Position numbers and translations under genes: made by a program | From: Escherichia coli | Lineage (GTDB): Bacteria; Pseudomonadota; Gammaproteobacteria; Enterobacterales; Enterobacteriaceae | DNA length: 64,000 bases | Strand: one strand, 5' to 3' | Assembly (NCBI RefSeq): GCF_003334355.1 | Contig: NZ_QOWP01000003.1 | Part shown: positions 5,531 through 7,678 of the stretch, one piece after another | Layout: each line of letters opens with the position of its first letter | How positions within the stretch are numbered: position 1 is the first letter of the stretch | Notes under the pieces: model-generated | Told to the model about the DNA's origin: nothing | Databases searched by the model: none | What the model saw: only the letters and a program-made list of their open reading frames with translations

Positions 5531-7678
5531 ATGAAAAAAGTCGTCACGGTTTGCCCCTATTGCGCATCAGGTTGCAAAATCAACCTGGTCGTCGATAACG
5601 GCAAAATCGTCCGGGCGGAGGCAGCGCAGGGGAAAACCAACCAGGGTACCCTGTGTCTGAAGGGTTATTATGGCTGGGACTTCATTAACGATACCCAGAT
5701 CCTGACCCCGCGCCTGAAAACCCCCATGATCCGTCGCCAGCGTGGCGGCAAACTCGAACCTGTTTCCTGGGATGAGGCACTGAATTACGTTGCCGAGCGC
5801 CTGAGCGCCATCAAAGAGAAGTACGGTCCGGATGCCATCCAGACGACCGGCTCCTCGCGTGGTACGGGTAACGAAACCAACTATGTAATGCAAAAATTTG
5901 CGCGCGCCGTTATTGGTACCAATAACGTTGACTGCTGCGCTCGTGTCTGACACGGCCCATCGGTTGCAGGTCTGCACCAATCGGTCGGTAATGGCGCAAT
6001 GAGCAATGCTATTAACGAAATTGATAATACCGATTTAGTGTTCGTTTTCGGGTACAACCCGGCGGATTCCCACCCAATCGTAGCGAATCACGTAATTAAC
6101 GCTAAACGTAACGGGGCGAAAATTATCGTCTGCGATCCGCGCAAAATTGAAACCGCGCGCATTGCTGACATGCACATTGCACTGAAAAACGGCTCGAACA
6201 TCGCGCTGTTGAATGCGATGGGCCATGTCATTATTGAAGAAAATTTGTACGACAAAGCATTCGTCGCTTCCCGTACAGAAGGCTTTGAAGAGTATCGTAA
6301 AATCGTTGAAGGCTACACGCCGGAGTCGGTTGAAGATATCACCGGCGTCAGCGCCAGTGAGATTCGTCAGGCGGCACGGATGTATGCCCAGGCGAAAAGC
6401 GCCGCCATCCTGTGGGGCATGGGTGTAACCCAGTTCTACCAGGGCGTGGAAACCGTGCGTTCTCTGACCAGCCTCGCGATGCTGACCGGTAACCTCGGTA
6501 AGCCACATGCGGGTGTTAACCCAGTTCGTGGTCAGAACAACGTACAGGGTGCCTGCGATATGGGCGCGCTGCCGGATACGTATCCGGGATACCAGTACGT
6601 GAAAGATCCGGCTAACCGCGAGAAATTCGCCAAAGCCTGGGGCGTGGAAAGCCTGCCAGCGCATACCGGCTATCGCATCAGCGAGCTACCGCACCGCGCA
6701 GCGCATGGCGAAGTGCGTGCCGCGTACATTATGGGCGAAGATCCGCTGCAAACTGACGCGGAGCTGTCGGCAGTACGTAAAGCCTTTGAAGATCTGGAAC
6801 TGGTTATCGTTCAGGACATCTTTATGACCAAAACCGCGTCGGCGGCGGATGTTATTTTACCGTCAACGTCGTGGGGCGAGCATGAAGGCGTGTTTACTGC
6901 GGCTGACCGTGGCTTCCAGCGTTTCTTCAAGGCGGTTGAACCGAAATGGGATCTGAAAACGGACTGGCAAATCATCAGTGAAATCGCCACCCGTATGGGT
7001 TATCCGATGCACTACAACAACACCCAGGAGATCTGGGATGAGTTGCGTCATCTGTGCCCGGATTTCTACGGTGCGACTTACGAGAAAATGGGCGAACTGG
7101 GCTTCATTCAGTGGCCTTGCCGAGATACTTCAGATGCCGATCAGGGGACTTCTTATCTGTTTAAAGAGAAGTTTGATACCCCGAACGGTCTGGCGCAGTT
7201 CTTCACCTGCGACTGGGTAGCGCCAATCGACAAACTCACCGACGAGTACCCGATGGTACTGTCAACGGTGCGTGAAGTTGGTCACTACTCTTGCCGTTCG
7301 ATGACCGGTAACTGTGCGGCACTGGCGGCGCTGGCTGATGAACCTGGCTACGCACAAATCAATACCGAAGACGCCAAACGTCTGGGTATTGAAGATGAGG
7401 CATTGGTTTGGGTGCACTCGCGTAAAGGCAAAATTATCACCCGTGCGCAGGTCAGCGATCGTCCGAACAAAGGGGCGATTTACATGACCTACCAGTGGTG
7501 GATTGGTGCCTGTAACGAGCTGGTTACCGAAAACTTAAGCCCGATTACGAAAACGCCGGAATACAAATACTGCGCCGTGCGCGTCGAGCCGATCGCCGAT
7601 CAGCGCGCCGCCGAGCAGTACGTGATTGACGAGTACAACAAGTTGAAAACTCGCCTGCGCGAAGCGGCACTGGCGTAA
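5531..7678 (+). CDS. fdhF: Formate dehydrogenase H, selenocysteine-containing molybdoenzyme (715 aa); in-frame TGA at 5948-5950 decoded as Sec140
   Basis: Two ORF-track fragments (5531-5950, 5999-7678) are in one frame joined through TGA; CPYCASGCK FeS motif; ...CCARV-U-HGPSVAGL... context. Confidence 0.95.
5951..5990 (+). other. SECIS recoding stem-loop immediately 3' of the fdhF UGA
   Basis: Position directly downstream of in-frame TGA; sequence CACGGCCCATCGGTTGCAGGTCTGCACCAATCGGTCGG can pair as hairpin. Confidence 0.7.

Follow-up and report, generated by a model that had tools for sequence, protein, structure and literature searches.

The interrupted fdhF frame of an Escherichia coli contig as a single formate dehydrogenase H gene with selenocysteine at UGA140

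A 64-kb stretch of Escherichia coli DNA (contig NZ_QOWP01000003.1; referred to below as the window) carries two listed open reading frames (ORFs) that together span positions 5531–7678. This region is almost certainly the E. coli fdhF gene, a single gene of 715 residues that encodes formate dehydrogenase H (FDH-H) and in which UGA codon 140 is recoded as selenocysteine (Sec). It is one gene rather than two ORFs because the intervening TGA is a selenocysteine codon with a selenocysteine insertion sequence (SECIS) hairpin behind it. Direct support comes from the reading frame, the identity of the protein, the match to a SECIS model, covariation between species, conservation of the site and the species-wide presence of the selABCD genes. 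The elements on which this identification depends are the following.

5531–7678, plus strand: fdhF coding sequence (CDS), 715 codons and a TAA, open except for the TGA at codon 140; assigned from identity to PDB entry 1AA6, NCBIfam TIGR01591 and RefSeq WP_001300547.1.
5948–5950, plus strand: UGA codon 140, selenocysteine; opposite X140 of the crystallised protein, in agreement with PMC4513850 and with conservation.
5943–5997, plus strand: full extent of SECIS_2 (Rfam RF01988), comprising the 40-nucleotide (nt) hairpin and an outer helix of 5 bp that brackets the UGA.
5962–5978, plus strand: minimal SelB-binding upper stem-loop, GGUUGCAGGUCUGCACC; read from the sequence, with the geometry of PMC8659212.

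The ORF listing gives 5531–5950 (plus strand, 139 residues) and 5999–7678 (plus strand, 559 residues). Both share one frame, as the preliminary description of this DNA had stated: the TGA lies 417 nt (139 × 3) and the second ORF 468 nt (156 × 3) downstream of the ATG at 5531, and translation of 5531–7678 as far as the TAA at 7676–7678 encounters a single internal stop, the TGA at 5948–5950, which a direct reading of the sequence (positions 5940–5999 are ctcgtgtcTGAcacggcccatcggttgcaggtctgcaccaatcggtcggtaatggcgcaa) places at codon 140. The second ORF is listed from 5999 because the lister opens it at the first ATG. All 16 codons in the gap between the TGA and this ATG (5951–5998) are sense codons; the TGA is therefore the sole interruption of the frame. 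The lengths add up to 139 + 1 + 16 + 559 = 715, and 575 intact sense codons lie downstream of the TGA. Annotation as a single 715-residue CDS and not as a pseudogene, which had been recommended, is what RefSeq already provides. Over its full length the window can be aligned to E. coli PSS-12 (NZ_AP027697.1, 2541867–2605866) with 15 substitutions, none of them in fdhF, and no gaps, and the PSS-12 record has at the coordinates equivalent to 5531–7678 one fdhF CDS of 2,148 nt (WP_001300547.1) that bears no pseudogene flag.

Across all 715 residues the translated product has 100% identity to the protein described as 'formate dehydrogenase H' in PDB entries 1AA6, 1FDI, 1FDO, 2IV2 and 7Z0T. In 1AA6_A the residue directly opposite the TGA is the X at position 140, and the sole non-identical position is the placeholder C set at 140 in the translation. 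The product also matches TIGR01591 (formate dehydrogenase subunit alpha) with 1095.7 bits against a cut-off of 666.25, over residues 6–685 and profile positions 1–672 of 672; its score against TIGR01553 is below the cut-off of that family. These results bear out the earlier naming of the gene as fdhF and of the TGA as the known selenocysteine site of FDH-H. The fdhF product is the selenoprotein of the formate hydrogenlyase complex that carries Mo-bis-molybdopterin guanine dinucleotide (bis-MGD) and a 4Fe–4S cluster. A four-cysteine motif (C8-x2-C11-x3-C15 ... C42) is present within the first 139 residues of the translation, and these cysteines are presumably the ligands of the cluster, as in PDB entries 1AA6 and 1FDO. 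From the FDH-H crystal structures, Sec140 is likewise taken to ligate the molybdenum of the bis-MGD cofactor.

A search against Rfam matched SECIS_2 at 5943–5997 on the plus strand with 87.1 bits (gathering score 70), covering all 55 positions of the model, with an E-value of 8.5 × 10−19 in a scan of 5000–8000 and of 1.8 × 10−17 for the whole window. This is the only SECIS match in the window in the gathering-threshold scan. The preliminary description had placed the SECIS at 5948–5990; the match supports the element, and its core at 5962–5978 falls inside that interval, but the model spans slightly more, with 5943–5947 pairing with 5993–5997 to form the outer helix. In the minimum free energy (MFE) fold of 5948–5990 the proposed hairpin does form, pairing 5950–5989 at −14.9 kcal/mol, a stable hairpin being by itself a weak criterion, and the MFE fold of 5943–5997 (−19.7 kcal/mol) is the same as the Rfam consensus structure. 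Thus, neither a frame change between the two segments nor a missing hairpin, both of which were looked for as possible refutations, was found. SECIS_3 (RF01989) overlaps the site at 5945–6003 but was rejected as the family of this element, since the match reaches 35.8 bits where the gathering score is 63 and has non-canonical pairs in the lower stem.

With the U of the UGA numbered as nt 1, the 17-nt segment GGUUGCAGGUCUGCACC corresponds to nt 15–31, starts 11 nt after the UGA and has a GGUC loop, with U17 at 5964, G23 at 5970 and U24 at 5971. The fdhF SECIS has been described as 40 nt in total, with a 17-nt upper stem-loop at nt 15–31 that is 11 nt from the UGA, a bulged U17, and U17 and G23 as SelB contacts; mutagenesis summarised in the same source shows that read-through needs both nucleotides (PMC8659212). 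In the published experiments, which were made on the same fdhF fragment, the SECIS behind UGA140 codes for residues 141–153, and removal of the SECIS impairs recoding (PMC4513850). The geometry of the window sequence is the published one.

For comparison between species, one genome per species (GTDB) was scanned for TGYGCNCGNGTNTGACAYGGNCC, that is C-A-R-V-UGA-H-G-P, with the stem-loop left free to vary. The scan gave at least 120 loci, and all cross-species figures given here rest on the matches listed. Of the 120 listed loci, 119 lie in FdhF homologues (55–100% identity), and they supplied 47 distinct 55-nt segments that were aligned with the window sequence to give 48 sequences in total. 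The remaining locus, from a Rhizobiaceae metagenome-assembled genome (MAG), was judged to be a chance match to the pattern, with six open codons before the TGA, four after it and no homology to FdhF; it was retained in the alignment, which renders the pair counts slightly conservative. Among the matches listed, 77 of the 80 homologues that are not cut by the end of the locus keep 574–605 open codons past the TGA. In the other three (L060, L109 and L111) the frame closes early, at 64, 291 and 95 codons, respectively, after the TGA, which may reflect degraded copies or faulty assembly.

In the alignment, 89.3% of cells are paired in the structure with U17 bulged, compared with 23–46% in controls with the 3' partners displaced by 1–3 columns. 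The alignment contains 28 double-change cells, and none of 500 shuffles equalled the alignment in pairing, in the number of double changes or in covariation score. Compensatory changes are found at the pairs nt 15–31 (GC in 33 sequences, UA in ten, UG in two and CG in one) and nt 18–29 (UA in 34, AU in nine and CG in two) and are located in Pasteurellaceae and two Shewanella species. Those in the 5' arm are synonymous and at the third codon position (UCG to UCU; GUU to GUA or GUC), and those in the 3' arm alter the amino acid (His to Leu; Gln to Lys). Such coupling of a synonymous arm with an arm that changes the protein suggests that it is the RNA, and not the protein, that is constrained here. 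U17, G23 and U24 are each at least 90% conserved across the 48 distinct sequences.

The alignment also bears on the register of the bulge. For the window sequence, bulging of U17 or of U18 is equal in energy (−19.7 kcal/mol), and both the Rfam SECIS_2 structure line and the MFE fold have U18 bulged and U17 paired with A29 (5964–5965 with 5976; alignment columns 22–23 with 34). This arrangement is less supported than the published one, leaving 12 unpaired cells at U17–A29 and 17 double-change cells. Covariation in the aligned sequences thus supports a paired U18–A29 and a bulged U17, and the Rfam SECIS_2 structure line is slightly out of register at this point.

Within E. coli, the comparison does not presuppose the TGA. 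Of 5,421 records, 5,408 have exactly the 61-nt segment of the window that contains the TGA and SECIS (5940–6000), and the other 13 match it at 95–99% identity. The fdhF gene was found in 5,420 of 5,426 complete E. coli genomes; its DNA is about 99.4% identical to that of K-12-derived strains and 100% identical to that of strain PSS-12. The presence of selABCD elsewhere in the genome, which the preliminary description had proposed as a check, was established at the level of the species using selB-selA, selC and selD queries from K-12 MG1655: selAB and selD are present in all 5,426 complete E. coli genomes, a set that includes PSS-12, and selC in 5,425. The window contains no tRNA gene, and the annotation of the collinear PSS-12 record contains no sel gene in this region, as expected because the sel genes map elsewhere in E. 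coli.

Several features of the E. coli fdhF records are of separate interest. Six of the 5,426 genomes have no match, and four matches are on plasmid-typed records. In NZ_CM192145.1 (E. coli Ec-U18) only the first 842 nt of fdhF match, in a feature that is named 'molybdopterin-dependent oxidoreductase' and adjoins gltP. Product names are also inconsistent: some RefSeq records give 'formate dehydrogenase N subunit alpha, selenocysteine-containing' although the protein is FDH-H, and other RefSeq names are 'formate dehydrogenase H subunit alpha, selenocysteine-containing' or 'formate dehydrogenase subunit alpha'.

The mechanism expected for this site follows the literature on SelB binding and recoding (PMC4513850; PMC8659212). 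During translation, the mRNA just 3' of UGA140 would fold into the SECIS hairpin, and the apical stem-loop at 5962–5978, with its GGUC loop and bulged U17, would be bound by the C-terminal domain of SelB, which according to that literature carries GTP and Sec-tRNA(Sec). The ternary complex, tethered 11 nt downstream of the UGA, would then deliver Sec-tRNA(Sec) to the A site in competition with release factor 2 (RF2), and Sec140 would bind the molybdenum centre of FDH-H through its selenium. Earlier experiments have established selenium at residue 140, the need for selB and selC in making full-length FdhF, and an effect of U17, G23 and U24 mutations on read-through.

The outer helix that brackets the UGA is paired in 96.7% of cells over the 48 sequences, with one-sided changes only. 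It could have a regulatory role of its own, such as shielding from RF2 or pacing of the ribosome, or the 139-residue product could be functional when selenium is scarce, but these additions to the scheme are improbable. Termination as the main functional outcome at UGA140, with full-length FdhF as a minor product, is a still more improbable reading. It can draw on the measured efficiency, since only about 30–40% of the ribosomes that reach the UGA insert Sec, both in vivo and in vitro, and the remainder terminate (PMC4513850), and the resulting N-terminal fragment of 139 residues would contain the four-cysteine Fe–S motif. However, the catalytic Mo-binding domains lie downstream of the UGA in a frame that is fully conserved across species, PDB entry 7Z0T shows FdhF at full length within the formate hydrogenlyase complex, and no evidence was found for a function of the fragment.

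A number of observations weigh against recoding at a SECIS in this position or restrict what the comparisons can say about it. Folding energy is one of them. Compared with dinucleotide shuffles, the 43-nt hairpin has a z score of −1.28 (18 of 200 shuffles fold equally well) and the 55-nt fold of 5943–5997 a z score of −1.23, and among the 2,192 43-mers that start with TGA on either strand of the window the fdhF hairpin ranks 96th; the 96 that fold at least this well are mostly terminators and repetitive extragenic palindromic (REP) elements. Folding energy alone does not separate the fdhF site from chance and was rejected as a discriminating criterion. Since the energy is not exceptional, identification of the SECIS rests on the covariance-model match together with the cross-species covariation. 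RNAalifold, used to derive a consensus fold de novo, missed the SECIS hairpin in the 48 sequences, in 45 sequences without outliers and in sub-ranges of the alignment, and gave either nothing or a weak alternative (columns 9–15 with 27–32, −3.47 kcal/mol) without covariation. As the columns of this alternative are invariant and partly fixed by the search pattern, the result is uninformative either way; the apical hairpin is present in the single-sequence MFE folds of 40 of the 48 sequences.

The sampling of species imposes further restrictions. The search pattern demands a TGA with 9 set nucleotides behind it and fixes columns 1–16 in part; the cross-species set is therefore no test of whether the TGA itself is conserved. 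Because the sequences share ancestry, the compensatory changes represent approximately three independent lineages, namely the Pasteurellaceae and the two Shewanella species. The lower stem is poorly kept outside the Enterobacterales (pairs 12–44, 15–41 and 17–39), which fits the published identification of the upper stem-loop as the minimal element. Lastly, the presence of the sel genes is established for the species and not for the source genome of the window.

These points could be taken to favour a reading in which the hairpin is a by-product of the conserved protein sequence HGPSVAGLHQSVG and has no function at the RNA level, the UGA being read by another route, for example by near-cognate tRNA-Trp. 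A folding energy that cannot be distinguished from that of shuffles, the lack of a SECIS structure in the RNAalifold output and the conservation of most columns, as expected for coding sequence, would all fit such a by-product. The two arms nevertheless change together at nt 15–31 and nt 18–29 with pairing kept, synonymous changes in one being matched by non-synonymous changes in the other; a covariance model that scores structure and sequence together gives 87 bits; and both the published need for U17 and G23 (PMC8659212) and the impairment of recoding upon removal of the SECIS (PMC4513850) argue for a function of the RNA. The chance that the hairpin is such a by-product is negligible.

The window also contains a second internal TGA that serves as a negative control. 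In aphA (34435–35148, minus strand) codon 48 is TGA at 35007–35005, where E. coli normally has TGG (Trp), and RefSeq flags the gene in PSS-12 with 'internal stop'. The 91-nt context of this TGA is identical in only one of 4,374 matching E. coli records, namely PSS-12. The gathering-threshold Rfam scan, run over all 64 kb, found no SECIS at the aphA TGA, and the 43-mer beginning with this TGA folds at the median of the window (−6.8 kcal/mol). The aphA TGA is a strain-private nonsense mutation, which shows that the window derives from PSS-12 or from a very close relative of it, and the fdhF TGA differs from it on every count. That the fdhF TGA is likewise a nonsense mutation and fdhF a pseudogene in two dead fragments, as could be supposed from a stop codon that formally breaks the frame, from mechanical ORF calling that gives two ORFs and from the genuine case of aphA (TGG to TGA) in the same window, stands refuted by the solved structure and by how well the site is conserved, given that the 61-nt context is identical in nearly all E. 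coli records as opposed to a single record for aphA, that the 575 sense codons past the TGA have their counterpart in a full downstream frame in 77 of 80 homologues among the matches listed, that the SECIS lies directly behind the TGA and that the protein has been crystallised full length with a non-standard residue 140.

The site can be compared with several known systems. The fdhF gene of E. coli K-12 (b4079) is the same gene, with Sec140, a full-length SECIS_2, the same UGA position, the 11-nt spacing, U17, G23 and U24, and the same neighbourhood (mdtNOP, fdhF, yjcO, gltP and nrf), and there is no difference of substance from the fdhF of the window. The genes fdnG and fdoG are taken to use the same mechanism: inside each coding sequence, an in-frame UGA precedes a hairpin that SelB binds. 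Their products, the alpha subunits of FDH-N and FDH-O, are homologous molybdopterin formate dehydrogenases (1KQF matches FdhF with an E-value of 7.6 × 10−45); they are, however, encoded by other genes outside the window and are periplasmic enzymes of about 1,015 residues exported by the twin-arginine translocation (Tat) pathway. Rfam SECIS_3 has UGA-proximal sequence and an apical hairpin in common with the fdhF site. The eukaryotic and archaeal SECIS elements (kink-turn type, Rfam SECIS_1) have the same outcome, UGA read as selenocysteine (PMC8659212), but are located in 3' untranslated regions, use SBP2 and eEFSec and have a different fold. Neither the E-value scan of 5000–8000 nor the gathering-threshold scan of all 64 kb gave a match to these elements.

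Some of the homologous loci show variations on this arrangement. Pluralibacter gergoviae, Cedecea neteri, Silvania hatchlandensis and Silvania confinis each have two fdhF-like paralogues, and in these Enterobacterales each copy has a TGA followed by a SECIS-like sequence; one of the two C. neteri copies is L060. Two MAGs assigned to Coriobacteriales and Slackia have FdhF homologues of about 55% identity in which the TGA and a GGUCU loop motif are kept and the enterobacterial stem register is not fitted. An alternative hairpin, GUCGUC-GGUCU-GAUUGAC, with an irregularity on its 3' side, can be drawn by eye and may represent a different SECIS variant.

The order of genes in the window is yjcS-ytcA-mdtNOP-fdhF-yjcO-gltP-nrfGFEDCBA-acs ... 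malEFG-xylE. Upstream of fdhF, a promoter-like element was read from the sequence.

5464–5479, plus strand: sigma-54-type −24/−12 promoter-like element, TGGCAT-N5-ATGCA.

Its GG (5465–5466) and GC (5477–5478) are 12 nt apart, and it is a putative signal for the expression of fdhF rather than part of the recoding site. Expression of fdhF is taken here to depend on sigma-54 and FhlA. A direct repeat, TTTCGTCA, occurs twice upstream of the gene (5371–5378 and 5403–5410), and the two arms of an inverted repeat, TCAAAACT/AGTTTTGA, lie at 5381–5388 and 5412–5419; these repeats are presumed candidates for FhlA upstream activating sites. Just after mdtP, a perfect 8-bp hairpin formed by CCGCGTGA and TCACGCGG (5342–5363) is followed by a T-rich stretch and resembles a terminator.

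Elsewhere, the PSS-12 record annotates as frameshifted pseudogenes yjcF (21485–22778), a DUF2713 family member (43276–44297) and a SopA family member (52336–53915), and the window carries the same three frameshifts because it has no insertions or deletions relative to PSS-12; these frameshifts may be genuine or may be assembly errors at homopolymers. The sraL Hfq-binding small RNA (RF01408) matches at 26495–26635 on the plus strand with 153 bits, and at its 3' end it shares 8 nt with the terminal part of the convergent soxR CDS (26628–27092, minus strand). Five intergenic repeats of the REP or bacterial interspersed mosaic element (BIME) type were matched by the Rfam family naRNA4 with 67–79 bits (gathering score 59.5).

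8466–8536, 8579–8649, 19184–19255, 55224–55294 and 59452–59522, minus strand: naRNA4 (Rfam RF02564).

The first two of these, between yjcO and gltP, sit in a direct duplication of about 149 nt (8464–8612 and 8577–8724) with 94.6% identity.

The recoding site of fdhF is already known, being the founding textbook example of the recoding of UGA to selenocysteine in bacteria, and nothing about it is new. Its significance here is one of annotation hygiene: simple ORF calling breaks fdhF in two, and an uncritical pipeline might label the gene a pseudogene; RefSeq is already correct. The fdhF TGA serves as a positive control for the scan, paired with the true negative offered by the aphA TGA in the same window.

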